Origin: an uncultured Syntrophomonas sp.
GTDB taxonomy: Bacteria > Bacillota > Syntrophomonadia > Syntrophomonadales > Syntrophomonadaceae
Assembly (NCBI GenBank): GCA_964640845.1
Contig: CAZXIR010000001.1
Span: 1 to 48,960, forward strand
Reading direction: 5' to 3'
Length of the DNA stretch: 48,960 nucleotides
Under the pieces are notes generated by a model that saw only the letters and a program-made list of their open reading frames with translations, did no database searches and was not told the DNA's origin. A program made the position numbers and the translations under genes. Below, piece after piece: positions 20,693 to 38,631 of the stretch. Each line of letters starts with the position of its first letter. The first letter of the stretch is position 1.

Positions 20693-20872
20693 TGATAAAT
20701 GCACCACCAATATCAAACAATCACGGTTTTACGTCTGTTATAATAGTATGGCTGATAAAAGATCCTGCAATGCTCCCTGTTAGGAGGAGATTCATCGACA
20801 ACATTTACAATAAGTTACTGCTATTACTGCCTCTCCATATACATGATTACAATGTTCCCCGATGTGAGGAAA

Positions 20873-23119: not shown

Positions 23120-23662
23120 ATGGAAAATAACGCAGAAAATGGCGCCAAAGGATGGAAAGCTTTATTTAGTAAAAAAGTTATACTAGCAGGATTGGGATTA
23201 GCTGTTATTATTGGAGTTGGGGTAGGGGCCTATCTGGTAAAGGCCAGTGAAAATCCAGAATTTTGTAGCAGCTGTCATTTAATGGTGCCCTATTACGATT
23301 CCTATCACGACAGTAACCTTTTAGCCAACCAGCATGCTGAGGCAGAGCTGGATTGTCACGATTGCCATGAGAGCTCGATAGCTATACAAGCCCAAGAAGG
23401 ATGGAAGTTTATCACCGGGAATTATCAAATACCATTAGAGAGACGCGAGTTTTCTAAGGAATTTTGTCTTGAATGTCATGATGATTTTGATACTACCGTG
23501 AAAGCAGCCACCGATTTCGAACATGCCAATCCGCATGATTCTCATAATGGGGAATTGGAATGCAATGTTTGTCACAATATGCACAAACCATCTCAAGTTT
23601 TTTGTGCAGAGTGTCATATATTTGATTGGTTCGACGAAATTGATGAAAGCTGGGCTAATTAA
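23120..23662 (+). CDS. Membrane-anchored pentaheme cytochrome c (NapC/NirT/NrfH-like quinol dehydrogenase candidate)
   Basis: 180 aa. One N-terminal TM helix (VILAGLGLAVIIGVGVGAYLV). Five CxxCH motifs: CSSCH, CHDCH, CLECH, CNVCH, CAECH. Confidence 0.9.
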   Translation: MENNAENGAKGWKALFSKKVILAGLGLAVIIGVGVGAYLVKASENPEFCSSCHLMVPYYDSYHDSNLLANQHAEAELDCHDCHESSIAIQAQEGWKFITGNYQIPLERREFSKEFCLECHDDFDTTVKAATDFEHANPHDSHNGELECNVCHNMHKPSQVFCAECHIFDWFDEIDESWAN

Positions 23663-23901
23663 AAAGAGCGGGATCTGTAGAATCATTAGCATTAGATGCC
23701 TGTACAAATAGAGGGTGTTAATATTGGTGATTTATCCAAAGGAAATTTCTAAGAAACACTGTACAATGTAATTAATCCATGGGAGACATAACATAGAGGA
23801 ATTAGAGGACGGTTCTTTCTGTTTTAGTCATATTCAAGTGGTTATTTTTTAAGAGACAGTCGAACCGTTCATTTATGTCCTGGGGCTGGAGGAGTGATTA
23901 T

Positions 23902-24909
23902 ATGCGCCAGATTTTCCATACCCTGGTTAAGAATATCTCGTCGATGAAAACCGGATTAGTTCTGCTGGCATTGCTGGCAATATTTTCAGCAATAGGAAGC
24001 AGTATATTTCCGGACATGTTTCATCGATTACTACTATTTAATGCTTTAATTATTCTGTTATTTATTAACCTGGGATTATGTACTCTAAACCGCTGGCTTA
24101 AAATAGGAAAGCGGCTGTTGGTTAAGCAGCATAATATTATTAATCATCTTCGGCAGTGGGGACTGCTGGTTTTGCATACCGGATTAATTTTAATTCTGGT
24201 GGGGGGAATGATTAATTCTTTAGCGGGTCAAAGCGGAAATGTTAAGGTGGTTGAAGGAGAACGAGTAGTTATTGCCCATAGCAAAGAGGGAGAAGATATC
24301 AGCCTGTGCTTAGAAGAATTTGAAATAGAACTGTATGAAAATGGCATGCCTTCCCAGTATTTATCAAAAGTACTGATATATAAGGGGGATGACTTGGAAC
24401 AGCAGTCTACTATTAGTGTTAATCATCCTCTGCAGTATGATGGCCTAAAAGTTTACCAGCAGAGTTATGGCATTATGGTGGAGGTTATTGTTGAAGGGGA
24501 TGGGAAGACTGAAACCTACTCGGCATCAGAAGGCCAGATATTAGAAATACCGGGTAGCAGCTATCGGGTTAAGGTTTTTAAGTATGTGCCTGATTTTGAC
24601 CCTTCATACGGCATGGAAAGTAAGACTAATGAGCCTAATAATCCTCGGGTAATATATTCCGTTTATCAGGATGAACAGCTTTTAGGAGTAGGGGCAGCAC
24701 GCTGGGGGGAAAGGATAGAAATATCCGCAACATCTTTTGTGGAGTTTGATGGACCTAAGCCCTACTCGGTTCTGAAAGTAAAGGAAGATCCGGGATTACC
24801 TTATGCGGCAGCCGGGGGAATTCTATTTATGCTGGGGGCAGCCTTGGCCGAGATTAATATTTTTAGAAACAAGTCGGGAAAAAAGGTTAGAAAAACGGTG
24901 GAGGAATAA
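23902..24909 (+). CDS. resB: Cytochrome c biogenesis protein ResB/Ccs1 (system II)
   Basis: N-terminal MKTGLVLLALLAIFSAIGS, typical of ResB. Large extracytoplasmic loop and C-terminal TM segment. ATG 23902 follows GGAGGAG. Immediately upstream of ccsA. Confidence 0.8.
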   Translation: MRQIFHTLVKNISSMKTGLVLLALLAIFSAIGSSIFPDMFHRLLLFNALIILLFINLGLCTLNRWLKIGKRLLVKQHNIINHLRQWGLLVLHTGLILILVGGMINSLAGQSGNVKVVEGERVVIAHSKEGEDISLCLEEFEIELYENGMPSQYLSKVLIYKGDDLEQQSTISVNHPLQYDGLKVYQQSYGIMVEVIVEGDGKTETYSASEGQILEIPGSSYRVKVFKYVPDFDPSYGMESKTNEPNNPRVIYSVYQDEQLLGVGAARWGERIEISATSFVEFDGPKPYSVLKVKEDPGLPYAAAGGILFMLGAALAEINIFRNKSGKKVRKTVEE

Positions 24910-24911
24910 CT

Positions 24912-25697
24912 ATGGCAGTATTGATTAAGACTAGCATCATTCTGGCACTGTTTATGTATTTAATCAGCAGTTGCTTATATTTAACCGGGCTGAAAACTAG
25001 CAGGAATAACCTGCTCATGGTCGCCAGTTCAGCAGCAATTATTGGTGCTGTGGCTAACTTGGTGGCAATCATTGCACGAACTATATTAAGTGGCCGATTA
25101 CCTTTAACTGATGGCTATGAGTTTATATTATGTTTTACGTTTATAAGCGTTCTCTTGTATCTGTGGTATGAAAAGATGAGTAATAGTAAAAGCGGTGGGG
25201 CAGTACTGATGCTTATGGCTTCCTTGTTACTAGGTTCGGTATTTATTCTTATGCCTGATCAGCATGGGGTGTACAGTCCGTTGATGCCGGCCCTTAAAAG
25301 TTCGTGGCTAATCAGTCATGTATTAACAGCGGTATTGGCCTATAGTGCATTTACCTTGGCTGCAGCCCTGGCAGTAGTACAAGTAGCAAAAAAGGATAAC
25401 AGTGATGATATTAATGTTTATCGGGCAGTAGGCGGCGGGTTTGTCATGTTATCCATATCTATAGTATTAGGCGGGGTATGGGCGGAACAAGCCTGGGGAA
25501 CTTACTGGAGCTGGGATCCCAAGGAAACCTGGGCCTTGGTAACCTGGATAATCTATGCTATATACCTGCACATATATCGCAGCCAAGGCTGGAAGGGAAG
25601 CAATGCTAACCTGGTGGTTATAGCAGGATTCATATTGGTTCTCTTTACGTTTTTTGGAGTCAACTATCTATTATCGGGACTGCACAGCTACGGCTAG
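24912..25697 (+). CDS. ccsA: Cytochrome c assembly protein CcsA/ResC (system II heme handling)
   Basis: 261 aa polytopic protein. Tryptophan-rich WWD-type heme-handling motif WGTYWSWDPKETWA. GGAGG RBS. Confidence 0.85.
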   Translation: MAVLIKTSIILALFMYLISSCLYLTGLKTSRNNLLMVASSAAIIGAVANLVAIIARTILSGRLPLTDGYEFILCFTFISVLLYLWYEKMSNSKSGGAVLMLMASLLLGSVFILMPDQHGVYSPLMPALKSSWLISHVLTAVLAYSAFTLAAALAVVQVAKKDNSDDINVYRAVGGGFVMLSISIVLGGVWAEQAWGTYWSWDPKETWALVTWIIYAIYLHIYRSQGWKGSNANLVVIAGFILVLFTFFGVNYLLSGLHSYG

Positions 25698-25843
25698 GAA
25701 TAGGCCGGGGGGACGGTTCCAAAACGAAGAATAAGGTGGGTTTAAGTAGTATATATACTATTTGAAATAGGCGTTGTAGTAGCTGGAATAATTGACAGCA
25801 GAAGAATGCAGACTTTGGCCCGGCTAAAAAAGGAGGATGAATT

Positions 25844-26023
25844 ATGTTTGGACTTATTGGTAACTTTGGTCCTTGGGAAATGGGATTTATTCTGGTTGTT
25901 CTTTTAATAATAGTAGGACCCGGGAAATTACCCAAGGTAGGAGAGTCGATGGGTAAAGCCCTGAGCAATTTCAAGAAAGCCCGAGAAGAAAGCGATGATT
26001 ATTTAGATATATCCGAAAAATAG
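25844..26023 (+). CDS. tatA: Twin-arginine translocase subunit TatA/E (59 aa; absent from the ORF track because it is under 60 aa)
   Basis: My own translation: MFGLIGNFGPWEMGFILVVLLIIVGPGKLPKVGESMGKALSNFKKAREESDDYLDISEK. It has one TM helix, the GPGKLPKVG hinge and an amphipathic helix. AGGAGGA RBS 6 nt upstream. TAG stop at 26021-26023. Confidence 0.85.
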   Translation: MFGLIGNFGPWEMGFILVVLLIIVGPGKLPKVGESMGKALSNFKKAREESDDYLDISEK

Positions 26024-26078: not shown

Positions 26079-27389
26079 TTATTTCATGAGGGTATTGGGG
26101 AGAAATGTGGCCAGGGTAGGAAAGGCAATTAACAATACCAAACAGAATACTAAAGCAATAAGAAAAGGCCATATACCTTTGAATATTAATTCTACTGGAA
26201 TCTCTGGCGCTACTCCTTTAATAACGTATACATTCATGCCTACCGGAGGAGTAATTACTCCCATAGCTACTACCATCACCATGATCACGCCAAACCATAT
26301 AGGGTCATAGCCTAGGGTATTTACCACCACTGGGAAGAAAATGGGAATGGTAAGTAGAATAAGGGCCAGGGCATCAATAAAGCAGCCCAGGATAAGATAA
26401 ATAACCAGAATAATGGCCATTACCACCACCGCTGGAAGGGCCAATTCTCCCGCCCAGGAAGCCAGTTCAAAAGGGACCCGGCTGACAGCCATAAATCGGC
26501 CAAACATCATAGCTCCGGCAATCATCAGCATAATCATAGCTGTAGTGCGGGTTGCATCAAAAAGGGATTTTTTAAAACCTTCCAGGCTTAGGTTTTTGCC
26601 CAGCAGTGCAGCCAAGAGTACACCAGCAGCACCTACTGCTCCTGCTTCAGTAGGAGTGAACCATCCTTTAAACAGGCCGCCCATGGATAGGGCAAATACA
26701 AATAGTACCTCAGCCAGGCCGCCGCGCAGGCTCTCCAGCCGCTCCTTCCAATCTGCCCGAGGTCCGGCCGGACCCAGTTCAGGACGGCGCAAGGTCAAAA
26801 TCCAGATGGTAACTATATAACACAGCATCAGCAGAATGCCGGGGATAATACCTGCCATAAACAATTTGCCTATAGACTGTTCCGTAGCCATTCCATAAAC
26901 AATAAAGATAACGCTAGGTGGTATTAAAACTCCCAGCACTCCGCCTGCAGCAATACTTGCTGTGGCCAAAGACATATCATAGTGGTATTTTTTCATTTCC
27001 GGCAGGGCAATAGCGCCCATGGTTGCTGCGGTAGCGGTATTGGAACCACAGATGGCGCCAAATACCCCACAGGCTATCTGAGTGGCTATGGCAAGGCCGC
27101 CCGGCCAGTGCCCAATCAGTTTATAAGCAAACACATACAATCTGGTTCCAATGCCAGAATAGAAAGCAAGAAACCCCATCCAGATGAACATTACAATAAC
27201 ACTTAGAGAATAAGAAGAAAAAGTATTATATATTTCCTTGGCTACCATACTGAAACCTGATGATATAGAAGTCAGGAAACTAAAACCTACAAAGCCCACC
27301 AGGGCCATAGCATAGGCAATTGGCATCCGTAGTATTAAAAGCAGCATAAAAGCAGCTAATCCTATAAGTCCGGCCACAAGCGAATTCAT
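26079..27389 (-). CDS. TRAP transporter large permease (DctM family)
   Basis: 436-aa polytopic protein. Start overlaps the DctQ-like stop. Typical DctM length and glycine-rich helices. Confidence 0.9.
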   Translation of the reverse strand: MNSLVAGLIGLAAFMLLLILRMPIAYAMALVGFVGFSFLTSISSGFSMVAKEIYNTFSSYSLSVIVMFIWMGFLAFYSGIGTRLYVFAYKLIGHWPGGLAIATQIACGVFGAICGSNTATAATMGAIALPEMKKYHYDMSLATASIAAGGVLGVLIPPSVIFIVYGMATEQSIGKLFMAGIIPGILLMLCYIVTIWILTLRRPELGPAGPRADWKERLESLRGGLAEVLFVFALSMGGLFKGWFTPTEAGAVGAAGVLLAALLGKNLSLEGFKKSLFDATRTTAMIMLMIAGAMMFGRFMAVSRVPFELASWAGELALPAVVVMAIILVIYLILGCFIDALALILLTIPIFFPVVVNTLGYDPIWFGVIMVMVVAMGVITPPVGMNVYVIKGVAPEIPVELIFKGIWPFLIALVFCLVLLIAFPTLATFLPNTLMK

Positions 27390-27871
27390 CTAAAAGCCCT
27401 CTTTAGCGATTCCGATAGTCCTACTGACAATACCAGGCTTAAAGCCAAAAGTCCGAAAGATATCAGGTAGACCACCGGATACAATGGTATTTGGGTGGTT
27501 GGAGATACGGTATTGCTTTCTAGCATAGTCCCGGCATATTTAGCCACATACCATGCAGACATTCCCCAAAATGATAGTGCGATAATATTGGTAAGCACAT
27601 CGGCAGCGGCCTGTAGTTTTTGAGAAAGTCGTTCGATGATAAAATCTACCGCTATATGACCATTCTGAGAGGCGCAGTGGGCCAAGGCCAGGCCGATACC
27701 TGCAGCGGTTAGCATAGTTACATATTCGTAAGTTCCCAGTATGGGACGATTAAAAAGCGCGCGCAGTAGGACGTTGCTTACTACCAGGACCATCACTGCT
27801 ACAACGCAAAGTCCTGCTAGATAATCTAGATGTTGACTTATTTTCTTTATCTGTCGAGTTAATTTATTCAT
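27386..27871 (-). CDS. TRAP transporter small permease (DctQ family)
   Basis: 161 aa with four hydrophobic segments, positioned between the DctP-like and DctM-like genes. GAGGAGGTG RBS. Confidence 0.85.
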   Translation of the reverse strand: MNKLTRQIKKISQHLDYLAGLCVVAVMVLVVSNVLLRALFNRPILGTYEYVTMLTAAGIGLALAHCASQNGHIAVDFIIERLSQKLQAAADVLTNIIALSFWGMSAWYVAKYAGTMLESNTVSPTTQIPLYPVVYLISFGLLALSLVLSVGLSESLKRAFR

Positions 27872-27890
27872 AACTGCACCTCCTCATCCC

Positions 27891-28979
27891 TTATTTGTAT
27901 TCCTGGTTATATTTTTCAGCCAGTTCCTTAACCGTATCCAATATCTCCTGTCCTGATTGTCCGCCTGCATCCATTCTGGCTATAAATTCATCTTGAATTG
28001 GCTTAACCAGGGTGATCCACTTATCTGCTTCCTCCTGTGAGAGCGGGATGACCTCCATGCCCTGCTCGTCGATTGCATACTTTAAGGCATCTTCATTCTG
28101 TTTATCCCATAAACCAATAGCTACCGCTTCAAAATACTCTTTATTGACAGCTTCAATAGCCTCTTGAATATCAGGGTCGAGCGAATTCCATTTATCAAGA
28201 TTTATAGTAATAAAAAACAAGGTATTGTATAGGAATGGGGTTTCAGTAATGTAACTGGTTACTTCGGCTTGTTTCCAGCCCTTCAGTACTTCAACCGGGC
28301 CTAGATTTCCCCGAACCACTCCCTTGGTTATAGCTTCATAGGCATCTGATTGGGGCATCGCGGCTGGGATAGCTCCTAGGGCTTGCAGGGTTTTGGCGCT
28401 GAGACCAGTGGCTCTGATTTCCATGCCCTGCAGATCCTCAAGATTGCGAACCGCATCCTTGGTGTACAAGTCGCCCGGGCCAGTAGTGAGTACCATCATA
28501 AGTTTAGTATCCTGAATTTCTGGGGGATTAAGTTCTTTTATACCTTCCCAGGCTACCTTGCTGGCCACCTTGGAATTATTATAGGTTATTCCCGGCAGTT
28601 CAAAGGCTTCCAATACCGGGAAACGACCCCTAGTGTACGAAAAACATGAAAGACCCAGATCGGCACTGCCATCCACTACTCCGGCATAAATGGAGTCAGC
28701 ATTCAACAGGGTTTGGTTGGGGTAACTGGTTATTTTCACCTGGCCATCGGTTGCTTCTTCTATAGCCTTAATCCAGGGTTGTATCAGTTCAGTTTCAGCA
28801 GGGTGAGTACTGGGGAAAAAATGTGCCAGTCTCAGCTCAACTGTCTTGGTTTGGTTCTGTTCCGGGCTACTGGAGTTTGAACACCCCATAGCAGTACCCA
28901 TTATTATAATGAGCAGCAGAGACAAGAGTTTAATACCTATCCGTTTTTTGTGTCCTTTTATACCCAACAAAGCTTGCAT
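27891..28979 (-). CDS. TRAP transporter solute-binding lipoprotein (DctP family)
   Basis: 362 aa. Signal peptide with lipobox AMGC. The RLAHFFPSTHP and YTRGRFP region is typical of DctP-type binding proteins. AAGGAGGAG RBS. Confidence 0.9.
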   Translation of the reverse strand: MQALLGIKGHKKRIGIKLLSLLLIIIMGTAMGCSNSSSPEQNQTKTVELRLAHFFPSTHPAETELIQPWIKAIEEATDGQVKITSYPNQTLLNADSIYAGVVDGSADLGLSCFSYTRGRFPVLEAFELPGITYNNSKVASKVAWEGIKELNPPEIQDTKLMMVLTTGPGDLYTKDAVRNLEDLQGMEIRATGLSAKTLQALGAIPAAMPQSDAYEAITKGVVRGNLGPVEVLKGWKQAEVTSYITETPFLYNTLFFITINLDKWNSLDPDIQEAIEAVNKEYFEAVAIGLWDKQNEDALKYAIDEQGMEVIPLSQEEADKWITLVKPIQDEFIARMDAGGQSGQEILDTVKELAEKYNQEYK

Positions 28980-29011
28980 TTTTCTCCTCCTTGTAATGTT
29001 ATTAAGGCAAG

Positions 29012-29123
29012 AAAAAAAACTCCCATAGGAGTCGTAAGAATGGTGTCAGGTCCTGCTTGCGCAAAGTGCAGCCAGGATTACCACCTCATTCTTTTACCTA
29101 CCGTCTTACCTTCCTACCTTTTT
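29012..29123 (-). promoter_or_regulatory. Candidate cis-regulatory leader RNA, proximal copy, ending in an intrinsic terminator 33 nt upstream of the TRAP binding-protein start
   Basis: Minus strand reads AAAAAGGTAGGAAGGTAAGACGGTAGGTAAAAGAATGAGGTGGTAATCCTGG...CACCATTCTTACGACTCCTATGGGAGTTTTTTTT. Terminator stem ACTCC/GGAGT plus U8. The 5' half is near-identical to the copy at 29271-29390. Confidence 0.55.
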
Positions 29124-29270
29124 ACTTGTTAAACCATCCTACAATACTACCGGTCAAAACCTCTTACCGGGTTTTCCCTACAGTATCAAATCTTAAAGAG
29201 TAACTAATATGAGGACAATACTGATTGATGATCTTAGTTATTTTCGCCTCCCTTTTTAAAATATCAGGGA

Positions 29271-29390
29271 AATAAAAAAACTCCCGCAGGAGTTGAAGAA
29301 CAGCATCAGATACATCATCCCGTTAGCATAACAGAAACAGGATTAGCACCTTTAGTCTTTTAACTACCGTTCTTACCTTCCTACCTTTTG
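29271..29390 (-). promoter_or_regulatory. Candidate cis-regulatory leader RNA, distal copy, with its own intrinsic terminator
   Basis: Minus strand reads CAAAAGGTAGGAAGGTAAGAACGGTAGTTAAAAGACTAAAGGTGCTAATCCTGTT...GCTGTTCTTCAACTCCTGCGGGAGTTTTTTTA. Terminator stem AACTCC/GGGAGTT plus U7. Confidence 0.55.
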
Positions 29391-30173
29391 ACAACCAACT
29401 ATTATGAATTTACCAATAAACCCAACTGAGAGTTGGTATTTATTCCTACTCTTGTATTTTCTCAGATATACATAAAAATTTCAATATCAAATTTTGCTGA
29501 TCTTGGTTTAATTCTATGCATTTTAGTTCTTAAAAATAGCTCTTATTTTAGAAGCTATTGTCCCACAATAAGGGAAATATCCCATTGGAATATCATTCTG
29601 GATAAACCTGAAATCCTTTTCCAATGCAAAGAGTAAAGCCCGGATCAAGATAAAACATTGGCCAGTAAATAAATCAGTATTATAATATATATAATCAATA
29701 CACATTGAAAGGGTTCAATTTCACACTGTATAAAGAAATTATCCACACCCTAAAGATTGTTTCAACCAATACTTAACTACAAATTAGTAAAGATTTTGCC
29801 ATTACAAGTAGGTTTAAGACTATTGTTCACGATTGACTTTGCACTATAATTAGACAATAATAGACATTGTGAACAAATATTCTTACGTGCTAGTAATATT
29901 GCAGCAGAATTGTTGAAATAAAAGGTTATTTAGCAGGTCTTTATATACCCGGAATTACATTGAAAACAGAAAAATGCCTAATATACAGTCCTTATATCTG
30001 AACTAATACTGTCTACTTCAGCTTAAGGGCCAGTCTGTTATAAATTCTGCATATAAAATGGGCTAGTTGCAGAAAATTGGAGAGGAGGAAAAGTCTGCAT
30101 TGAAAAGGGAAAAGAATCAAAACAAAGTTGGTAAAATCCGCGAAAGAGGTACTATGCAAAGGAGGGAAAGGGT

Positions 30174-30539
30174 TTGCTAGCAGAATATCCAGCCCTGGGA
30201 ATATTTTTTCTAATCACTTTGGCCTTTCCTGTGGCAGCCATGGCTATGGCCTGGCTATTCCGGCCTAAACCAAAGGCAGCACCAGACCATGAAAAATATA
30301 CCACTTATGAATGTGGGGTAGATACCCAAGGTAAAACCTGGATCAGGTTTAAAGTGAACTATTTTTTGTATGCTCTGGTGTTTCTGGCCTTTGATGTAGA
30401 AATCGTATTTCTTTATCCTTGGGCCGTCAAGTTCGGAGTCTTGGGACCTTTTGCCTTTATCGAGATGATAATCTTCATCGCCATATTACTTATTGCACTA
30501 TGGTATGCCTGGAAGGAGGGGGCTTTGGAATGGTATTAG
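30174..30539 (+). CDS. nuoA: NADH-quinone oxidoreductase (complex I-like) subunit A
   Basis: 121 aa, three TM segments, YECG motif. First gene of a collinear nuo cluster. TTG start after AAGGAGGG. Confidence 0.85.
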
Positions 30540-31042
30540 ATACTAAAAATAAGGACCAGGATAATGATGTAGAAGAACTGGCCAGTAACAATATCCTGGT
30601 TACTAGCTTTGAGAAACTATGGAATTGGGGAAGATCCTGGTCTTTCTGGCCCTTAAATTATGGCTGTAATTGCTGTCCCATCGAAGTCATGGCTGCAGGA
30701 GCAGGCAGATTTGACCAAGCTCGCTTTGGATATGAGGTAGTAAGGGCGGTGCCCCGTCAGGCTGATCTATTGACCGTGGCGGGTCCTATCACCCTTAAGA
30801 TGAAACCAGCCGTTGAGCGGGTGTGGGCGCAGATGCCGGAGCCCAAGTGGGTGATCGCCATGGGCAATTGTGCTATTAGCGGCGGACCTTTTACAGATGG
30901 CTACAGTGTGTTGCCGGGGGTAGATTCAATTATTCCCGTGGATGTATATATACCAGGATGCCCGGTAAGGCCGGAAGCCTTGTTTCACGGCATGCTGGAG
31001 TTAAAAAAGAAAGTCCAGCAGGGCGAATACCGGAGGAGTTGA
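30530..31042 (+). CDS. nuoB: Complex I subunit B (N2 Fe-S cluster subunit)
   Basis: [19 protein letters not shown] and PGCPVRPE cluster-binding motifs. ATG 30530 follows GGAAGGAGGGGG and overlaps the nuoA stop. The track start at 30419 lies inside nuoA. Confidence 0.9.
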
Positions 31043-31046
31043 TAAG

Positions 31047-31496
31047 GTGCAGGATTTTAACCTGGAGCAGATGGTCCAGAACCTGGAAGAGCAACTAGGA
31101 GATAAACTGAGAACGGTAATGGATCAATTTTTCACGGTCTTGAATGTAGAAAAAAGTGAATTAAAAACTTTAATGCTTAGACTCAGAGATAATTATGGAT
31201 TCAACCACCTGGCTAATCTTAGCTCGGTTGATTATAATGAGGAATTTGAAGTAGTTTACCACCTTTATTCGATTCCCACCAACCACAAGATTTGTGTTAA
31301 GACTAGGGTTCCCAGAAACTCGGCAGAAGTGGATTCGCTAATAGATATCTGGCCCACCGCCGACTGGCAGGAAAGAGAAGTATATGACCTGATGGGAATC
31401 CAGTTTAAAGGTCATCCCAACCTGATCCGGGTCTTGCTCCCGGACAATTTTGATGGGCATCCCCTGCGCAAGGATTTTGTGATGGGAGGGCGATGA
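31047..31496 (+). CDS. nuoC: Complex I subunit C
   Basis: 149 aa. WPTADWQEREVYDLMGIQFKGHPN signature. GTG start after GGAGGAG. Confidence 0.9.
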   Translation: MQDFNLEQMVQNLEEQLGDKLRTVMDQFFTVLNVEKSELKTLMLRLRDNYGFNHLANLSSVDYNEEFEVVYHLYSIPTNHKICVKTRVPRNSAEVDSLIDIWPTADWQEREVYDLMGIQFKGHPNLIRVLLPDNFDGHPLRKDFVMGGR

Positions 31497-31499
31497 TAG

Positions 31500-32600
31500 T
31501 TGATGCAAACCGATGTATATACAGTTAATGTTGGCCCCATTCATCCCAGTACCCATGGTGGTTTACACGCCGAAGCAGTAATGGATGGAGAGATCATCCA
31601 GGATGTCATCGTACACTTGGGCTATGTGCATAGAAGCGTGGAAAAAATCGCCGAAAGCAGAACTTATCAGCAGTTTGTTCCCTATACCGCCCGGCTGGAT
31701 TACCTGGCCACCAACCTGCCGGTTCTAGGCTACTGCCAGACGGTAGAAAAGCTGCTGGGTATCCAGGTACCGGAACGTGCTCAGTATATCCGGGTTATTA
31801 TGGCCGAACTGTCCCGGATTGCCTCTCACCAAATAGCCATTGCCGCCACGGGAATAGACCTGGGGGCTACTACCGGCCTGATGTATGGCATGCGGGACCG
31901 GGAGAGGATCATGAATATCTTTGAGATGACCGGAGGGCAGCGCTTGTTATCTTCCTACATCAGAATAGGGGGAGTTGCTCTTGATATACCAGATGGATTC
32001 ATTGGGACGGTCAGGAGTTTAGTAAATGATGTTCCCCAGATGATAGATGAATATAATGGCCTGATGACCGGTAACGAGATATGGGCTGCGCGGATGCAGG
32101 GAGTTGGTATCCTTAGCCTGGAAGATGCTGTGAATTACGGTGTGACCGGTCCCAACTTAAGAGCCTGCGGGATAGCCTATGATATTCGAAAAGCTGAACC
32201 CTATGGAATCTATGATCGTTTTGCTTTTGATATACCCATCGGCAATCGGGGAGATTCGCTGGACCGCTGGAAGGTTCGAATTGAAGAGATTGGGCAGAGT
32301 AGCCGCATCATAAAACAGGCCCTGGATAATCTTCCCGAAGGGGAAATAACCGCTCGAGTTCCCAGAGTCTTGAAACCTGAGCCGGGTAAAGAGGTCTATC
32401 ACCGGATCGAGTCAGCCAAAGGAGAACTGGGCTACTATATAGTAAGCGATGGCAGCAATAAACCTTATCGTCTGCACGTAAGGGCGCCATCCTTCATCAA
32501 CTTGATGGTTTTGCCTCTGGTATGCCGGGGAGGGGTGTTCCAGGACATCATTACCAATATTGCTACCCTGGATCCGATACTGGGGGAATCAGATAGATAG
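31500..32600 (+). CDS. nuoD: Complex I subunit D
   Basis: 366 aa. NVGPIHPSTHG, LGYVHRSVEKI and a C-terminal DPILGESDR-type ending. The start may be ATG 31503. Confidence 0.9.
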   Translation: MMQTDVYTVNVGPIHPSTHGGLHAEAVMDGEIIQDVIVHLGYVHRSVEKIAESRTYQQFVPYTARLDYLATNLPVLGYCQTVEKLLGIQVPERAQYIRVIMAELSRIASHQIAIAATGIDLGATTGLMYGMRDRERIMNIFEMTGGQRLLSSYIRIGGVALDIPDGFIGTVRSLVNDVPQMIDEYNGLMTGNEIWAARMQGVGILSLEDAVNYGVTGPNLRACGIAYDIRKAEPYGIYDRFAFDIPIGNRGDSLDRWKVRIEEIGQSSRIIKQALDNLPEGEITARVPRVLKPEPGKEVYHRIESAKGELGYYIVSDGSNKPYRLHVRAPSFINLMVLPLVCRGGVFQDIITNIATLDPILGESDR

Positions 32601-32649
32601 AAGCAGTCAATCCCATTGACTAATCAGACTCAAGAGGAGCGAATGATTT

Positions 32650-33690
32650 ATGGAACCTTTGTTTATTAATCTGGTAGCAGCCTTAACCGGGTGGCTGATA
32701 AGCCTGGGTTTGTCACCCATATGGGCCGATACTGTTTTGTTATTAGTTAAATGGATAATAATAATCACTATAATTACCCTAAACATTATTATCTTGATTT
32801 GGCTGGAGAGAAAAGTCAGTGCTTTTTTCCAGGAAAGATTGGGTCCCAATAGACTGGGGCCTTTCGGGATATTCCAAACCCTGGCTGACACCCTCAAGCT
32901 TTTGACCAAGGAAGATATTGTGCCGTCAGCAGCAGACAAACTCATTTTTAAAACCGCCCCCATGTTGTTCATAGTGGTGGCAGTAATGCTGTATACGGTA
33001 ATACCTATGGGTGAAGGTCTGGAAGTCATTAACTTGAATGTGGGACTATTGTTCTTCATTTCTATCGCATCTCTGGGTACCATTGCTCTGATAATGGCTG
33101 GCTGGGGATCCAATAATAAATGGTCTTTAATGGGCTCGCTGCGTTCAGTGGCCCAGATGATAAGTTATGAGATACCCCTGGCCTTTTCTCTGTTGGGAGT
33201 AGTGATGATCACCGGCTCATTAAACCTCCAGGATATTGTAGCGGCCCAAGATAACCTGTGGTTTATTATCCTGCAGCCGATTGCCTTTATAACCTATTTT
33301 ATTGCCGCTACAGCGGAGTTAAACAGGGGACCTTTCGATATGCCGGAAGCGGAGCAGGAACTGACCGGCGGTGCATATACCGAATATACCGGTATGCGTT
33401 GGGCGCTCTTTTTCCTGGCCGAATATACCAACCTGGTAGCCGTATCTGCTTTGATGGCCACCGTTTTCCTGGGCGGATGGCAGGGTCCCTGGCTGCCATC
33501 CTGGTTATGGATCATAATTAAGACTTACGGAGTTATCCTGGTATTTTTCTGGGTAAAATGGACTTTTCCCCGTATCCGTATGGATCATCTGATGTCTTTT
33601 AGCTGGAAGGTCTTGGTGCCAGTAAGTCTGGGCAACATACTGCTTACTGGCGCGGGAATCTATTTTTGCAGATGGATGGGGTGGTGTTAG
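32650..33690 (+). CDS. nuoH: Complex I subunit H
   Basis: 346-aa polytopic protein. ERKVSAFFQERLGPNRLGPFG and AELNRGPFDMPEAEQEL signatures. Confidence 0.9.
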   Translation: MEPLFINLVAALTGWLISLGLSPIWADTVLLLVKWIIIITIITLNIIILIWLERKVSAFFQERLGPNRLGPFGIFQTLADTLKLLTKEDIVPSAADKLIFKTAPMLFIVVAVMLYTVIPMGEGLEVINLNVGLLFFISIASLGTIALIMAGWGSNNKWSLMGSLRSVAQMISYEIPLAFSLLGVVMITGSLNLQDIVAAQDNLWFIILQPIAFITYFIAATAELNRGPFDMPEAEQELTGGAYTEYTGMRWALFFLAEYTNLVAVSALMATVFLGGWQGPWLPSWLWIIIKTYGVILVFFWVKWTFPRIRMDHLMSFSWKVLVPVSLGNILLTGAGIYFCRWMGWC

Positions 33691-33692
33691 AT

Positions 33693-34382
33693 ATGAATGG
33701 ACAAGGATTGATCAAAGGACTGGGCATTACCTTGAAACATTTCTTCCAGAAAGAGATAACCGAGCAGTATCCGGATGTAATGCCAGAACTGGCTCCGCGT
33801 TTTCGAGGCTGCCTGCAGTTTGAATTTGAAAAATGCATAGCCTGTGGTATTTGTGTAAACAGTTGTCCCAATAATGTGCTGTCATTTGAAACCGAAAAAG
33901 ATGAAAACAGTAAAAAGAAGAAACTGTTAAGCTATACCATAGATTTTCAACGCTGCATGTTCTGTAACCTTTGTGTGGAAGGCTGCCCCAAAGAGTGCAT
34001 ATATTTCGATCATAATTTTGAACTATCCAAATTCAATCGGGAGGATATAAAGATGGTCTATCTGCGCCCGGAAGGCCTGGACCTGCAAGAAGACGAAAGC
34101 GGTGCAGCCCAGCAAGACCAAAAGGTTGATAAAGAGCAGAAGCAGATCGAGGCCATGCAAAAAGCACTGCAGAAGAATCCCGGCAAAGTCCTGAGCAAAA
34201 TCATGGAACAGGAAGTGGATATCAATATATTGTCTGAATTGATGCAATCGGATGAGAAAACTGCCGGGAAAATTGCTGAGCTGATGGTTAAAGACAAAGA
34301 AAAGGCAGCTAAAGTAGCGGCAGGCTTTGTTAACAAGGAAAAGAAAAAGCGCCTCCAGGCAGAGGAAGGAGGAGAGGCATAA
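33693..34382 (+). CDS. nuoI: Complex I subunit I (2x[4Fe-4S]) with a roughly 105-aa Lys/Glu-rich C-terminal extension
   Basis: CIACGICVNSCP and CMFCNLCVEGCP motifs. ATG 33693 lies 2 nt after the nuoH stop. The tail from about 34065 is KE-rich low complexity. Confidence 0.85.
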   Translation: MNGQGLIKGLGITLKHFFQKEITEQYPDVMPELAPRFRGCLQFEFEKCIACGICVNSCPNNVLSFETEKDENSKKKKLLSYTIDFQRCMFCNLCVEGCPKECIYFDHNFELSKFNREDIKMVYLRPEGLDLQEDESGAAQQDQKVDKEQKQIEAMQKALQKNPGKVLSKIMEQEVDINILSELMQSDEKTAGKIAELMVKDKEKAAKVAAGFVNKEKKKRLQAEEGGEA

Positions 34383-34912
34383 TGTTGGATTTCTCTGCTT
34401 TCTCATTATATGATGCGGTATTTATAGCCATTGCTGGAGTAACGGTTTTTGGCGCCCTAGGGGTAGTCTTGTTCAGAAATATCATTTACAGCGCCTTGAG
34501 CCTGATTTTGGCCTTCCTGGGAGTAGCCGCAATCTATTTTCAGTTAAATGCCGGTTTTTTAGGAGTTATACAGATCCTGGTATATGCTGGAGCTATATCA
34601 GTATTGATTATTTTCGCCATTATGCTGGTGATGAATAGACCTGCCGGCAGATCTAATCTAACCAGTCCGCGCATCAGGGAAGCTTTTGTCGGTGGTACTA
34701 TTACTGCTATGATGCTTACGGCCCTGATTGCGGCCATTGGGCTTTCTGATTGGCCCAAAAGAGTGCTGTTTGCAGGAGCAGATGATACGGTGGGGATCTT
34801 GGCAGAACTAATGCTGGGTGACTATGTAGTGGCCTTTGAGGCCGCTGCTATACTACTCTTGGTAGCAGTTGTGGGGGCTATTATACTGGCAAAGGGGGTT
34901 GAAAACAAGTGA
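34382..34912 (+). CDS. nuoJ: Complex I subunit J
   Basis: 176 aa, five TM segments. ILVYAGAISVLIIFAIML signature. TAATG overlap with nuoI. Confidence 0.85.
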   Translation: MLDFSAFSLYDAVFIAIAGVTVFGALGVVLFRNIIYSALSLILAFLGVAAIYFQLNAGFLGVIQILVYAGAISVLIIFAIMLVMNRPAGRSNLTSPRIREAFVGGTITAMMLTALIAAIGLSDWPKRVLFAGADDTVGILAELMLGDYVVAFEAAAILLLVAVVGAIILAKGVENK

Positions 34913-35217
34913 TAGGATTACCCCATTATTTAGTACTGGGTGCGGTAGTTTTTTCCATTGGTGTTTTTGGAGTTCTAACCCGGCGTAATGCAGTAGCGGT
35001 ATTAATGTCGGTGGAACTGATGCTAAATGCGGTAAATATCAATTTCGTGGCTGCTAACAAGTTTGTTGCTGCCGGCACCGCGGTGGGACAGTTGTTTTCG
35101 GTATTCATTATTGTGGTAGCAGCGGCGGAAATCGCTGTCGGTCTGGCTCTGGTTATATCCATTTACCGGCAGCGGGGAACTATTGATCTCCATGATTTTA
35201 ATCTGTTGAAGTGGTGA
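34909..35217 (+). CDS. nuoK: Complex I subunit K
   Basis: 102 aa, three TM segments. MSVELMLNAVN and AAAEIAVGLAL signatures. GTGA overlap with nuoJ. Confidence 0.9.
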   Translation: MIGLPHYLVLGAVVFSIGVFGVLTRRNAVAVLMSVELMLNAVNINFVAANKFVAAGTAVGQLFSVFIIVVAAAEIAVGLALVISIYRQRGTIDLHDFNLLKW

Positions 35218-35218
35218 G

Positions 35219-37105
35219 GTGATGCATATGTATGAATTTATTTTACCTAATGCCTGGCTGATAGCCTTTTTGCCCTTTTTAGCTTCTGCACTAATAGGAT
35301 TATTTTTGCATCGCTGGCCCAGTTTATCAGCAGGTTTGTCTATACTCAGTATAGGTTTGGCATTTCTATTGTCTATCCCCATTGCCCTGGCAGTATTCTC
35401 GGAACCGGGAGGGGCAATATTCGAGTTTTCCGTGCGCTGGCTCAGTATGCCAGGATTACAGGTGGATATGGGTCTGCTCTTGGATCCGCTCACAGCGGTT
35501 ATGCTGATAGTAGTTACTTCAATAGCCACATTGGTGCAGATATATTCCCTGGGCTATATGGAGGGAGATCCGGGTTTTGCCAGTTATTTTGGCTACCAGA
35601 GTCTATTTGCAGCTTCCATGCTGGGTCTGGTGATGGCTAATAATTTTGGACAGATGTTTGTATTCTGGGAACTGGTAGGGATATGTTCCTATTTTCTGAT
35701 CGGGTTTTGGTTCGGGCTGGATTCTGCCAAAAACGCAGCCATCAAAGCCTTTATAACTAATCGGGTAGGAGACTTTGGATTTTTACTGGGGATACTATTC
35801 CTGCAGATTATTTTTGGTACCCTGAGTTTTACTGCTCTGGCCGACCAAGTGCCTGGCTTTACTAATATGGCAGTTTTAGTTCCGGTGGCCATACTGCTGT
35901 TCTTTGGACCCATGGGTAAATCGGCTCAGTTTCCTTTACATGGATGGCTGCCTGATGCCATGGAAGGTCCTACTCCGGTCAGTGCCTTGATTCATGCGGC
36001 CACCATGGTAGCCGCCGGGGTGTACCTGGTAGCCCGGGCCTTTTTCATATTTGCCAGTGTGCCACAGGCTATGACCGTAATAGCGGTAGTCGGTGGTTTT
36101 ACCGCCTTGTTTGCCGCTACCATCGCTATTACCCAGAATGATATTAAAAGGATCCTGGCTTATTCAACCTTAAGTCAGCTGGGGTATATGATGATGGCTA
36201 TGGGAGTAGGGGCTATGACTGCCGGTATGTTTCACTTGATGACTCATGCCTTCTTCAAGAGCCTTTTGTTCCTGGGGGCCGGTAGTGTGATACATGCTAT
36301 GCATGGTGAACAGAATATCTGGAAAATGGGCAATGTTTCCAAGAAGATGCCCATAACCACCTGGACCTTTATAATCGGGGCCTTGGCCCTGTCCGGAATT
36401 CCGCCCCTATCGGGATTTTGGAGCAAGGATGAAATACTCTTGGCTGCCTATTCCAGCGGCCATATGGGATTGTATGTTCTGGGGGCAGTAGTGGCTTTCA
36501 TGACCGCCTTTTATATGTTCCGGCTCATATTTACTGCCTTCTATGGTAAGAATACTCAGGGTGAGAAGGCCCATGAGAATAGAGGGGTTATTACCGTGCC
36601 TCTAATTCTCCTGGCCCTAGCAGCTATCTTGGTCGGCTTGGTTAATTCTCCCCTTATGCACCATGTGTTTGGAGAATTCGTCAACAGTCCGTTGGGCATC
36701 AATCCACATCCAAGCATGGCTATAATGATTTCATCCTCCCTGATAGCCGGGTCTGGAATATTACTGGCCTGGTTAATGTATCAGAAGGAGCTGATCAGTC
36801 ATAAAGCCTTGCGTAATAGATTTTCAGGCATTCACCAGCTGGTTCAGAATAAATACTATATCGATGAAATATATACCCGGATAGGAGAGATATTGGTTTA
36901 CGGAGGAGCCCGGGCCATGTTCTGGTTTGACATCCATGTGGTCAATGGGATAGTTGATGGCATCGCTTTTCTTACTGGTAAAAGTGGAGATACCTTGAGA
37001 TATACGGAAGATGGACAGGTTCAGAGCTATGCCATGTACATGATGGCCGGGGTATTAATCCTGGTAGTATTGGCTGCTGTAGCAGTCGAGTCGGCAGTAT
37101 TATGA
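35219..37105 (+). CDS. nuoL: Complex I subunit L (antiporter-like)
   Basis: 628 aa. GKSAQFPLHGWLPDAMEGPTPVSALIHAATMV signature. Confidence 0.9.
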   Translation: MMHMYEFILPNAWLIAFLPFLASALIGLFLHRWPSLSAGLSILSIGLAFLLSIPIALAVFSEPGGAIFEFSVRWLSMPGLQVDMGLLLDPLTAVMLIVVTSIATLVQIYSLGYMEGDPGFASYFGYQSLFAASMLGLVMANNFGQMFVFWELVGICSYFLIGFWFGLDSAKNAAIKAFITNRVGDFGFLLGILFLQIIFGTLSFTALADQVPGFTNMAVLVPVAILLFFGPMGKSAQFPLHGWLPDAMEGPTPVSALIHAATMVAAGVYLVARAFFIFASVPQAMTVIAVVGGFTALFAATIAITQNDIKRILAYSTLSQLGYMMMAMGVGAMTAGMFHLMTHAFFKSLLFLGAGSVIHAMHGEQNIWKMGNVSKKMPITTWTFIIGALALSGIPPLSGFWSKDEILLAAYSSGHMGLYVLGAVVAFMTAFYMFRLIFTAFYGKNTQGEKAHENRGVITVPLILLALAAILVGLVNSPLMHHVFGEFVNSPLGINPHPSMAIMISSSLIAGSGILLAWLMYQKELISHKALRNRFSGIHQLVQNKYYIDEIYTRIGEILVYGGARAMFWFDIHVVNGIVDGIAFLTGKSGDTLRYTEDGQVQSYAMYMMAGVLILVVLAAVAVESAVL

Positions 37106-37122
37106 GAGGGGGTAGGTAATCA

Positions 37123-38631
37123 ATGAACCAAATACCAGTATTAACTATAGCATTATTAGTACCACTGCTGGGAGCAGCGATAATCATGGGCCTGCCCGCT
37201 CTGCAGCACCAATGGATCAAGAGAACTGCTGCCATCTCCACCCTGGTCAGCCTGGTTTTATCTATAGCAGTATTGCTGGCTTATGACCAGACTGCGGGGG
37301 GAATGCAGTTTGTAGAGACCATACCTTGGATCAGGGATCTGGGGGTTAACTATGCCCTGGGGGTAGATGGGATAAGCATTCCCATGCTGCTCTTGACCAA
37401 TTTAATTGGGTTTAGTTCCATATATGCATCCTGGAATATTACTGAGCGGGTCAAGGAATTTTTTGCTCTGCTCTTAATACTCATTGCCGGAGTGATGGGA
37501 ACCTTTATAACCACGGATTTATTTATTTTCTTCCTATTTTATGAAGTAGTGGTGATACCCATTTATCTGATGGTGATAATGTTTGGCAGCACCAAACGGG
37601 TTACCAAAGAATACGCGGGAATGAAATTGACCATATATCTGCTCATCGGCAGCGCCTTCCTCCTTACTGGACTGATTGCTCTCTTTGTACAGGCTCAGGC
37701 TATCAGTGGCATAGCCAGTATGGATATGGCATTTCTAGCTACCCTGGAATATTCAACCGGCTTTCAGATTATTGTCTTTGCTTTTATGGCCTTTGGGTTC
37801 GGTACCCTGTTATCCATGTTCCCATTCCATGCCTGGTCACCGGATGGTTATGCCGGAGCGCCTACAGCTGTAAGTATGATTCATGCCGGAGTCTTGAAGA
37901 AGATCGGAGGATACGGATTAATCCGTATAGCCCTTACTATCCTGCCAGCAGGAGCCGCAGTTATAGCTCCGATCATTGCAGTATTGGCATTGGGCAATAT
38001 TGTTTATGCAGCCTATATCTGTTTAAGCCAGAAAGATTTGAAATATATTGTTGGTTATTCCAGTGTGAGCCACATGGGATATGTTTTAGTAGGCATCGCA
38101 GCCTTAAATATTATTAGCATAAACGGTGCAGTTATCATGATGTTTGCCCATGGGGTAATGGCGGCTCTGTTCTTTGCCATGATCGGCAACCTGTATGAAA
38201 AGAGCCATACCCGCAATATTGAAGATTTCGGTGGTCTGGCCCATCAGATGCCGAAACTGGCCACTGGCTTTATGATTGCCGGATTGGCTTCCTTAGGATT
38301 GCCGGGAATGGTTAATTTCATCGGTGAGTTTACCATATTCGTAGGAGCTTTCGGCACCTATAGAGTGATAACCATTATAGCCATATCGGGAATCGTATTT
38401 ACCGCCCTGTATGTCTTGCGGGCCCTGGGCAGGATGTTATTCGGACCTCGCAATGAGAAATGGGATCATCTGCAGGATTTAAAAGGAGTAGAGATGGTGC
38501 CCCTGATAGTACTGGGATTGGCTATTTTTATGGGAGGTTTCCTACCCTTTACCCTGATGGATTTAATCAATAGCGGTGTAGTAGACTTGGTAGCCCAGAT
38601 CGGATTGCCACAGATGGGAGGTTTATTATAA
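37123..38631 (+). CDS. nuoM: Complex I subunit M (antiporter-like)
   Basis: 502 aa. FPFHAWSPDGYAGAPTAVSMIHAGVLKK signature. Confidence 0.9.
   Translation: MNQIPVLTIALLVPLLGAAIIMGLPALQHQWIKRTAAISTLVSLVLSIAVLLAYDQTAGGMQFVETIPWIRDLGVNYALGVDGISIPMLLLTNLIGFSSIYASWNITERVKEFFALLLILIAGVMGTFITTDLFIFFLFYEVVVIPIYLMVIMFGSTKRVTKEYAGMKLTIYLLIGSAFLLTGLIALFVQAQAISGIASMDMAFLATLEYSTGFQIIVFAFMAFGFGTLLSMFPFHAWSPDGYAGAPTAVSMIHAGVLKKIGGYGLIRIALTILPAGAAVIAPIIAVLALGNIVYAAYICLSQKDLKYIVGYSSVSHMGYVLVGIAALNIISINGAVIMMFAHGVMAALFFAMIGNLYEKSHTRNIEDFGGLAHQMPKLATGFMIAGLASLGLPGMVNFIGEFTIFVGAFGTYRVITIIAISGIVFTALYVLRALGRMLFGPRNEKWDHLQDLKGVEMVPLIVLGLAIFMGGFLPFTLMDLINSGVVDLVAQIGLPQMGGLL

Follow-up and report, generated by a model that had tools for sequence, protein, structure and literature searches.

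The region upstream of the dctPQM operon in the window (i.e., the whole stretch of 48,960 nucleotides of DNA that was analysed) contains a conserved cis-regulatory leader that is not in Rfam and that is named here the GUAG-repeat leader. It occurs as two units of about 115 nt on the minus strand, each carrying an intrinsic terminator at its 3' end. The leader has a defined anatomy, is conserved among relatives, is associated with particular transporter genes, and possesses bistable folds. Each unit may function as a transcription attenuator, in which a repeat array is bound by a trans-acting factor according to the logic of the RNA-binding protein TRAP (MtrB), a reading to which we give an even chance. 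To our knowledge, few systems exist in which a protein reads a short RNA repeat array to decide on termination, TRAP and HutP being the textbook pair. If the proposal is true, a widespread third array, with a different unit and a different period, in little-studied anaerobes, would widen this class and would point to a new RNA-binding protein, for the discovery of which the leader gives both a bait sequence and a regulon. In addition, the leader is a functional lead for a highly conserved TRAP-type transporter, with ties to the supply of aromatic or tyrosine precursors, and it adds a candidate family that is lacking in RNA databases.

Architecture of the leader region

The leader is located in a non-coding stretch of about 1.2 kb, considered here on the minus strand, between the divergent gene nuoA (30174; Pfam Oxidored_q4) and dctP (28979-27891). 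A first-pass annotation, made from the nucleotide sequence, had reported a near-identical duplicated block in this stretch. Indeed, a 19-mer (AAAAGGTAGGAAGGTAAGA) is present in two exact copies in the window (29122-29104 and 29389-29371), against 0.01 expected, and two matches were obtained in none of 100 shuffles. Aligned with each other, the two units are identical in 83% of the columns, and the start of one core is 267 nt from that of the other. A covariance model built from homologues (R1), the seed of which included both units of the window, gave exactly two matches in the 49-kb window, namely these two units. A consensus scan revealed a promoter-like site for the whole leader on the minus strand (29456-29484; TTGAAA, a 17-nt spacer, and TGnGAAAAT), with a transcription start predicted from the consensus match at about 29449, and no promoter-like site between the two units. 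The promoter-like sequence is also kept in the relatives L001-L004 and L008. Because the single promoter-like site is distal to both units and none lies in between, the operon is probably preceded by one leader of about 470 nt, with two terminators in series.

The 5' end of this predicted leader (29422-29449, minus strand, as are all features of the leader) consists of GAGUAGGAAUAAAU followed by a small hairpin (CCAACUCUCAGUUGG; 29436-29422). The distal unit (covariance-model match 29393-29272, 89.2 bits) comprises a core repeat array (GGUAGGAAGGUAAGAACGGUAGUUA; 29361-29385), the third repeat of which is degenerate, a variable hairpin, P1 (AAGAACGGUAG / GCUGUUCUU plus AUCCUGUU / AACGGGAU; 29295-29360; folding z-score -2.0), and an intrinsic terminator (AACUCC-UGCG-GGAGUU followed by U7; 29272-29294; hairpin of -7.6 kcal/mol). 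A relic ribosome-binding site without a start codon (AAAAAGGGAGGCGAAAA; 29241-29258) is found 3' of the distal terminator. The proximal unit is preceded by an upstream cluster of GUAG motifs (29136-29181; GUAGGG at 29181, GGUAG at 29151-29147, and GUAGG at 29142-29138), which flanks a small hairpin at about 29175-29156. This unit (covariance-model match 29126-29011, 88.3 bits) is built up likewise of a core repeat array (GGUAGGAAGGUAAGACGGUAGGUA; 29095-29118), a variable hairpin P1 (AAGAAUG..GGUG / CACC..CAUUCUU around CCUGG..CAGG; 29034-29094; z-score -2.9), and an intrinsic terminator (GACUCC-UAUG-GGAGUU followed by U8; 29010-29033; hairpin of -6.2 kcal/mol). In accordance with the definition of an intrinsic terminator, both units have a 6-bp stem, a 4-nt loop, and a U7 or U8 tract.

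Most of this anatomy had been outlined by the first-pass annotation. The three GGUA(A/G)G repeats with a phasing of 8-9 nt and the UUCUU tracts were seen in the units, and the internal hairpins fold as claimed (AUCCUG..CAGGA in unit 1, the proximal one, and AUCCUGUU..AACGGGAU in unit 2, the distal one). The small hairpin announced upstream of each unit is present too, at the positions given above. Furthermore, both terminators, with their U8 and U7 tracts, were recovered by a terminator scan over 1.5 kb (29033-29018 followed by U8, and 29294-29279 followed by U7), which returned four terminator-like sites against 1.1 expected.

Conservation and distribution

A set of 80 loci with DctP relatives, taken from one genome per species (53 Firmicutes and 27 Desulfobacterota), was searched with an nhmmer profile of the two units, a fuzzy pattern of core and terminator, and covariance model R1, all of which agreed. 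In about 50 of the 53 Firmicutes loci, the element was retrieved immediately before dctP and in sense orientation. Its carriers include Syntrophomonadaceae, Pelotomaculum, Desulfotruncus, Desulfoscipio, Desulfotomaculaceae, Desulfitobacteriaceae, Desulfosporosinus, and Thermoclostridium. It was found in none of the 27 Desulfobacterota orthologues (41-49% identical), and searches elsewhere in the window and in the flanks of the loci gave no match. Applied to sequences outside its build, R1 scored 24-90 bits at the position upstream of dctP; its scores for Desulfosporosinus orientis and for a Gracilibacter-like contig were 52.7 and 70.2 bits, respectively.

The conserved block had been said to match no known riboswitch class, and Rfam 15 indeed gave no match at the gathering score when the window and 16 homologous loci were scanned. 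At E ≤ 10, the matches in the window were noise only, namely snoRNA, lncRNA, and miRNA models at 11-19 bits. Nothing relevant to an earlier description of the leader was present in the literature searched. A metagenome scan with the core pattern matched at least 120 stretches and yielded, among the matches listed, at least about 35 low-GC matches that represent the leader before dctP. Also among the matches listed, three loci (L117, L155, and L170) contained the complete leader, including the terminator, before a gene coding for a 405-aa MFS protein, and one short contig (L082) contained the leader before the gene of another membrane protein. The 405-aa MFS protein scored 407 bits, against a cut-off of 320, with the NCBIfam equivalog model of the SfMCT L-lactate transporter. 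Since the leader precedes dctP and SfMCT-like MFS genes, it is not a dispersed repeat and marks a small regulon of carboxylate transporters. The first-pass annotation had named a repeat present at many unrelated loci as evidence against its reading, and this does not apply to an element that is tied to particular transporter genes and not scattered. An apparent DctP paralogue of 40% identity behind the leader (L197) was rejected as a new target, its contig being frameshifted.

The downstream operon and the probable signal

The regulated operon (26079-28979, minus strand; Pfam DctP, DctQ, and DctM; NCBIfam) consists of dctP (28979-27891), coding for a lipoprotein solute-binding subunit, dctQ (27871-27386), and dctM (27389-26079), and has its ribosome-binding site (AAGGAGGAG) at about 28992-28984. 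The nearest DctP relatives are from Syntrophomonas MAGs, with an identity of at most 87%, and the transporter is 60-87% identical across Firmicutes families, carrying the label 'unknown substrate 3'. Based on sequence and on predicted fold (model pLDDT 81), the nearest solved relatives of DctP, which are about 30% identical, comprise binding proteins of Desulfovibrio, the TarP group, and a marine binding protein 'specific for aromatic acid ligands'. The solved structures of the TarP group contain coumarate, caffeate, ferulate, cinnamate, or 4-hydroxyphenylacetate as the ligand. Furthermore, 'indole acids' are mentioned among the ligands of TRAP transporters in a review (PMC5812351). A transcriptome study of S. 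wolfei assumed that the TRAP system Swol_0329-31 imports butyrate (PMC11087674).

One orthologous locus, of a Bacillota MAG (L045) with a DctP that is 63-66% identical to that of the window, possesses a T-box in place of the GUAG-repeat leader (RF00230; score 106.6 bits, threshold 93). From the sequence on the 3' side of the specifier loop, GAA-A-UAC-A, the specifier of this T-box is UAC, hence tyrosine. Because of this one orthologue with a tyrosine T-box, the aromatic-acid-binding relatives of DctP, and the second target that resembles a monocarboxylate transporter, the signal read by the GUAG-repeat leader is, by analogy, probably the sufficiency of tyrosine or of aromatic amino acids or acids. 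As a lead, the regulon may import aromatic acids or amino acids and may be shut down by an abundance of aromatic amino acids, perhaps of tyrosine.

The GUAG repeat array

The purine-rich core has the consensus AAA-GGUAGGAAGGUUAGnAyGGUAGGnAuAAG and consists, in all instances, of three GGUAGnAy units with a period of 8-9. Divergent members keep only GUAG, for example GUAGGAAUGUAGUUAAGUAG in L028. A second GUAG cluster upstream of the core is statistically real. Indeed, in the 90 nt before the core of the homologues, GUAG is 3.6-fold enriched (112 occurrences, where dinucleotide shuffles predict 31 ± 4.9), GUAGG was counted 48 times against 7.7 expected, and pairs of UAG spaced 7-9 nt apart were counted 32 times against 8.3 expected; the antisense word CTAC is almost absent from these 90 nt. 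The linker from the upstream cluster to the core is A-rich and ranges from 2 to 82 nt, lengths of 21-25 nt being the commonest. Both the number of repeats, from 3 to about 15, and their arrangement differ between genomes, the leaders of Desulfosporosinus orientis and of the Gracilibacter-like contig containing 11-15 UAGs in several clusters. Conserved columns are found only in the linear repeat block and in the terminator.

Other roles for these sequences were considered and rejected. Most cores contain four to six GG runs, as could suit a G-quadruplex sensor, but the members L028, L034, L041, L014, and L021 lose the GG runs and keep GUAG. Similarly, the GGA of CsrA sites is not kept in L024, L025, and L014, whereas GUAG is. 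A boxA-like sequence in the linker (UUUAACAA) is restricted to a Syntrophomonas subgroup. Attenuation by a leader peptide was discarded as well, the peptide MRW* of unit 1 and other short ORFs not being shared between units or relatives.

Variable hairpin, terminator and alternative folds

The hairpin between core and terminator measures 42-164 nt, is hypervariable in sequence, and has no conserved loop. Nonetheless, this region folds better than its dinucleotide shuffles in 59 of 60 instances (median z-score of -2.85, with 40 of the 60 below -2). The terminator, (A)ACUCC-URYG-GGAGU(U) followed by a U tract, is conserved in both sequence and shape, and a hairpin with a U tract directly behind it is present in all instances; its 5' half plus loop, CUCCURY, is complementary to the GUAGG(A) of the repeats. 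When the core was forced to be single-stranded, the terminator folded in all 60 instances, whereas with a free core 30 of the 60 minimum-energy folds lost the terminator to a GUAGGA:UCCURY helix stacked on the hairpin. For the proximal unit of the window, the energies of the terminator and antiterminator folds are -28.1 and -26.1 kcal/mol, respectively, and for the distal unit they are -32.9 and -33.9 kcal/mol. In the distal unit, the antiterminator is formed by repeat 1 plus GUAAGAAC/GUUCUU, and the degenerate third repeat reads GGUAGU. The alternative pairing of a UUCUUAC segment, which the first-pass annotation had put forward as the mark of a switch, is real, the terminator and antiterminator folds being 1-2 kcal/mol apart in both units.

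In an alignment of 53 sequences, 86% of the cells allow GUAGG to pair with CCURY, compared with 36-72% after sliding of the partners. Variation in the terminator loop is limited to R followed by Y, whereby U-A/U-G and G-C/G-U pairs with the repeat are retained. Loops that break the pairing with GUAGG occur in the proximal units of L005, L006, and L052, and in L039 and L049. A composition-shuffled core still pairs with the 5' half of the terminator in 81% of the trials, compared with 62 of 64 observed; the pairing between repeat and terminator is largely compositional. Covariation in excess of that in shuffles was found neither for the antiterminator nor for the terminator, and the basal helix of the hairpin was not significantly better than pairings with shuffled or non-cognate partners (6.41 pairs, versus 5.93 with non-cognate ones). 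In addition, the terminator was the sole structure recovered by MAFFT plus RNAalifold. Covariation among homologues, on which the first-pass annotation had made its reading depend, was therefore seen for none of the proposed helices. On these results, the alternative fold is plausible, and the potential to form it is conserved.

Proposed mechanism

In the proposed attenuation mechanism, the nascent RNA would first expose the unstructured GGUAGnAy array, then the hairpin, and then the intrinsic terminator. With the repeats free, one of them would pair with CUCCURY while the 3' half of the terminator is still to be transcribed, and this pairing would give an antiterminator that extends the hairpin, enabling the polymerase to read into dctPQM. 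With the repeats occupied by a trans-acting factor, the terminator would form and transcription would stop. This factor would most likely be an oligomeric RNA-binding protein that is activated by a ligand, as is the case for TRAP on the Bacillus trp leader. The units being placed in series behind one promoter, a transcript would have to pass two checkpoints. Termination upon binding is the favoured direction of control, because occupied repeats remove the only visible competitor of the terminator, and because the analogy with the T-box of the orthologue implies expression upon starvation.

We infer that the repeat array is probably read by a trans-acting factor, most likely a protein, rather than being part of a metabolite aptamer, as the number of repeats varies, a conserved pocket is absent, and no covariation was found. 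A protein-read array is favoured in particular since TRAP and HutP also read repeated NAG-type triplets. The label of attenuator in the first-pass annotation, and its idea of pulling down an RNA-binding protein, thus fit best. In its fullest form, the proposal is that a third ligand-activated, repeat-reading attenuation protein, comparable with TRAP and HutP, reads GGUAG units with an 8-nt period and couples the aromatic amino-acid or aryl-acid status to precursor uptake in syntrophic and sulfate-reducing Clostridia; this form is tentative, the balance being somewhat against it.

Homologues of HutP, TRAP, and CsrA were searched for in the window and the flanks and not found, and a tblastn search for HutP gave no homologue in the 80 dctP loci either; the HutP query sequence had been verified against PDB 1VEA and the TRAP query likewise against its PDB entry. 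Within 4 kb on either side, no neighbouring gene besides dctQM is conserved over 54 Firmicutes loci. A conserved neighbour was hence rejected as the regulator, and the ORFs of the window do not include a dedicated RNA-binding regulator. The window also contains a gene for Tex (5716-8025), a general factor with an S1 domain.

Comparison with known attenuation systems

TRAP sites consist of 9-11 (G/U)AG triplets separated by spacers of 2-3 nt. The GUAG-repeat leader resembles the TRAP-controlled trp leader of B. subtilis in that NAG-containing, single-stranded repeats lie upstream of, and would overlap, an antiterminator in competition with an intrinsic terminator, as predicted here by folding. 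The likeness would extend to the logic, in which bound repeats let the terminator form, and to the signal, which would be an aromatic amino acid. In both cases, moreover, the targets include a transporter gene, which for TRAP is the tryptophan transporter gene trpP. The unit is different, however: it is GGUAGnAy with a period of 8-9 and mostly UAG, three of them forming the core, with irregular extra clusters. Consequently, the core has three UAG/AAG triplets with 5-6-nt spacers, and the spacers of the upstream clusters vary irregularly from 0 to 7 nt. Unlike the targets of the TRAP protein, those of the present leader are TRAP-type DctPQM or MFS transporters. Its hosts are also different, namely Syntrophomonadaceae and Desulfotomaculia, for which no mtrB was seen in a partial look-up. 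In this partial look-up of TRAP homologues outside the Bacilli, the names Syntrophomonas, Desulfotomaculum, and Pelotomaculum did not appear, those given being unclassified Clostridia MAGs, Limnochordales, and Halanaerobiales only. TRAP itself was rejected as the factor, given the misfit in spacing and with no lineage evidence found in this partial look-up.

HutP recognizes NAG triplets, preferably UAG, in clusters of three with 4-nt spacers (a period of 7); two such clusters, connected by a linker of 12-20 nt, flank a GC-rich terminator stem, and binding prevents termination (PMC2425495). The present leader is partly similar in its GUAG clusters, between which lies an A-rich linker of 2-82 nt, with 21-25 nt as the commonest length, and an amino acid containing an aromatic ring would again be the effector. 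In contrast with HutP sites, its repeats have a period of 8-9 instead of 7 and are all located 5' of the hairpin and terminator instead of on either side of the latter, and its logic is probably the reverse. Furthermore, hutP is the first gene of its own operon and lies just upstream of the HutP sites, whereas no hutP-like gene occurs near the present leader.

T-box leaders (RF00230) are, just as the leader described here, terminator/antiterminator leaders of Firmicutes that precede amino-acid-related transporters. Unlike these, the leader of the window has neither a Stem I with its specifier loop nor the T-box sequence AGGGUGGNACCGCG. No match to RF00230 was obtained in the window, nor was AGGGUGGNACCGCG found there by pattern, whereas the same model detects the T-box of L045. 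Tandem riboswitches, such as tandem glycine aptamers, are comparable in having two similar units in series in one 5' leader, here each with its own terminator. They differ in that the present leader has no aptamer-like conserved structure, and its tandem is confined to one clade and probably derives from a duplication of leader plus ribosome-binding site. Neither a covarying aptamer nor conserved junction or loop nucleotides, as are generic for riboswitches, were found.

Alternative explanations

The main reading of the first-pass annotation was a riboswitch. In that case, the purine block, the hairpin, and the 5' half of the terminator would together be an aptamer that recognizes either the compound transported or some related metabolite, for instance tyrosine or an aryl acid. 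Its ligand would tip the balance of terminator and antiterminator, and no protein would be involved. A conserved leader that ends in a terminator, has near-isoenergetic folds, and is without an Rfam match is compatible with this, as are the many instances in which both strands of the internal loop that separates the GUAGG:CCURY helix from the hairpin are rich in A; tandem arrangements are generally known among riboswitches too. The conserved nucleotides, however, form a linear GUAG array, present in 3 to about 15 copies depending on the genome and variably arranged, and not a junction or pocket, and the sole sizeable hairpin, 42-164 nt long and hypervariable, offers no conserved loop or junction, while no helix covaries. 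Repeats 1 and 2 and the upstream GUAG clusters would, moreover, be left unexplained, and a riboswitch is improbable. Control by a HutP-like antiterminator, which we deem unlikely, would retain a protein on the repeats but reverse its effect: the terminator would be the default, and a ligand-activated factor would wrap the GUAG clusters, prevent or melt the terminator, and induce the operon on substrate. The clusters with their A-rich linker of 21-25 nt resemble HutP sites I and II, with their linker of 12-20 nt, the terminator is already present in 30 of 60 unconstrained minimum-energy folds, and substrate induction is common for catabolic uptake systems. Unlike HutP site II, however, no NAG repeat is located in or 3' of the terminator stem, and occupation of the repeats takes away the only competitor of the terminator that is visible. 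Also, the T-box of the orthologue switches on in amino-acid starvation, which argues for end-product repression and not for substrate induction.

The repeats could instead be read by an RNA acting in trans, i.e., the 3' end of 16S rRNA or an sRNA or tRNA in which a sequence of the CCUAC type is present. The array is single-stranded and purine-rich, and UAGGAAGG could form eight pairs with the 16S tail CCUUUCUA (the 3' end of Bacillus 16S rRNA). Against such a partner, L024, L028, L034, and L041 keep GUAG but not GGA/GG, which is a misfit to one fixed partner, T-box features are lacking in the leader, and no complementary RNA was seen in the window, making this explanation highly improbable. 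It is, finally, very improbable that no sensor is involved at all and that the units merely terminate part of the transcripts constitutively or are genes of small RNAs with ends of their own, the purine block being kept for another reason, such as RNA stability or processing. The distal unit does have a promoter-like site and a terminator, so that termination would give an RNA of about 175 nt, and the lack of covariation would fit as well. An element without a sensor would, however, sit uneasily with the strict position and orientation upstream of two kinds of transporter genes across families, with the conservation of both the repeat-terminator complementarity and the near-isoenergetic folds, with the substitution by a T-box at one orthologue, and with the retention of both duplicates since before the species split. 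Attenuation by a factor on the repeats, with termination upon binding, is thus the reading that we prefer.

Tandem arrangement

Loci with two units are confined to the window's nearest clade, which comprises L001-L006, L008, and L052 and, among the metagenome matches listed, L095, L125, L139, and L167. Between genomes, the similarity is 0.76 among distal units and 0.84 among proximal units, whereas distal and proximal units of the same genome have a similarity of 0.72. Like units being closer across genomes than the two units within one, the duplication predates these species and both copies were retained. In all tandem loci, a strong Shine-Dalgarno-like AAGGAGGCGAAGA without a start codon is found 3' of the distal terminator. 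Because this start-less motif trails each distal terminator, the leader and its ribosome-binding site were probably duplicated together, the distal site being left over. The first-pass annotation had ascribed cooperative or two-input control to the tandem. No sign of cooperativity or of two different inputs was found in the tandem units, which are better described as diverged duplicates in series that would act as two checkpoints. The two serial terminators would multiply the effect of one signal.

Leader details in the window

Two further elements accompany the tandem GUAG-repeat leader units upstream of dctPQM on the minus strand. On the 3' side of the terminator of the distal unit is a relic ribosome-binding site (window 29241-29258, minus strand; AAAAAGGGAGGCGAAAA) with no start codon behind it, which is kept as AAGGAGGCGAAGA in all tandem loci, i.e. 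those loci of the clade closest to the window that carry two leader units. A perfect 6-bp palindromic hairpin (CCAACTCTCAGTTGG; window 29422-29436), scoring terminator-like on both strands, occupies the 5' end of the leader, approximately 15 nt past the predicted transcription start.

Leaders and leader-like elements at related loci

The GUAG leader, including its terminator, was also retrieved in front of a gene coding for an MFS transporter in three of the listed metagenome stretches matching the core pattern (L117, 678-777; L155, 3620-3513, minus strand; L170, 16-109). In all three, this transporter is 405 amino acids long and is a match to the SfMCT L-lactate transporter equivalog of NCBIfam. 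The ORFs next downstream of the MFS gene in L155 start with MNIRQGYVF... (406 amino acids) and MPITEFLVRNANLYGDEISLIE... (223 amino acids, cut by the contig end); judged by eye from its N-terminus, the latter resembles an acyl-CoA ligase.

In the Bacillota MAG locus L045, the dctP orthologue, starting at approximately position 724, lacks the GUAG leader and is preceded in its place by a T-box leader (281-659; RF00230, 106.6 bits) with the specifier UAC (tyrosine). T-box sequences were present in another DctP locus too, L024, the minus strand of which contains two of them (AGGGTGGTACCGCG), approximately 110 nt apart and each followed by a terminator. This pair falls inside the first 130 nt or so of the reverse complement (near plus-strand positions 8999-8870), on the strand opposite to dctPQM, and is a tandem T-box leader of another gene, situated past the end of the locus.

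In Desulfosporosinus orientis (CP003108; L201), two small ORFs (2169-2662), both of which recur in a related Logan contig (L202), are located directly 5' of the leader. One encodes a cysteine-rich protein of 53 amino acids (MKDVCAGCHQKMGC...); the other (97 amino acids), for which no Pfam match is on record, looks like a membrane protein from the appearance of its sequence. Farther upstream there is an EamA transporter gene, and on the downstream side a gene for a PALP enzyme.

Octamer arrays among the metagenome matches

About 80 of the listed matches of the metagenome pattern scan (L081-L200) consist of arrays in which the octamers GGTAGGAC, GGTAAGAC and GGTAGGAA are repeated in tandem, a feature that is unrelated to the GUAG leader; under the covariance model of the leader (R1), these arrays reached 14-23 bits only. 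Examples are those of L085 (minus strand, oriented positions ~900-1100), L104, L112 (6308-6400), L119, L126, and L172. Among the matches listed, the array-bearing contigs are mostly high-GC ones from soil and sediment. The arrays are mostly intergenic or directly follow genes, and in many cases CCTACCGT forms an inverted array close by.

Other genes of the window

Regulator and flavoprotein genes are clustered in the window between 10510 and 22651, encompassing three PucR-type HTH regulators (10510-11703, 17451-17753, and 19499-20716), two sigma-54 activators (11962-14061 and 15471-17375), and three fumarate-reductase-like FAD-binding flavoproteins (14194-15294, 17793-19349, and 20939-22651). 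This cluster is followed by genes coding for a NapC/NirT-type cytochrome c and for ResB and CcsA-type cytochrome c assembly proteins (23120-25697). Two minus-strand ORFs, 10081-10404 (107 amino acids) and 25660-25974 (104 amino acids), had no Pfam match, the latter lying directly 3' of dctM. Finally, 11 ORFs run in one direction at 30174-40049, the first being NuoA (Pfam Oxidored_q4; the only ORF of the set so checked). Their sizes match those of nuoA, B, C, D, H, I, J, K, L, M, and N, by which this region would be a candidate NADH dehydrogenase operon without nuoEFG.
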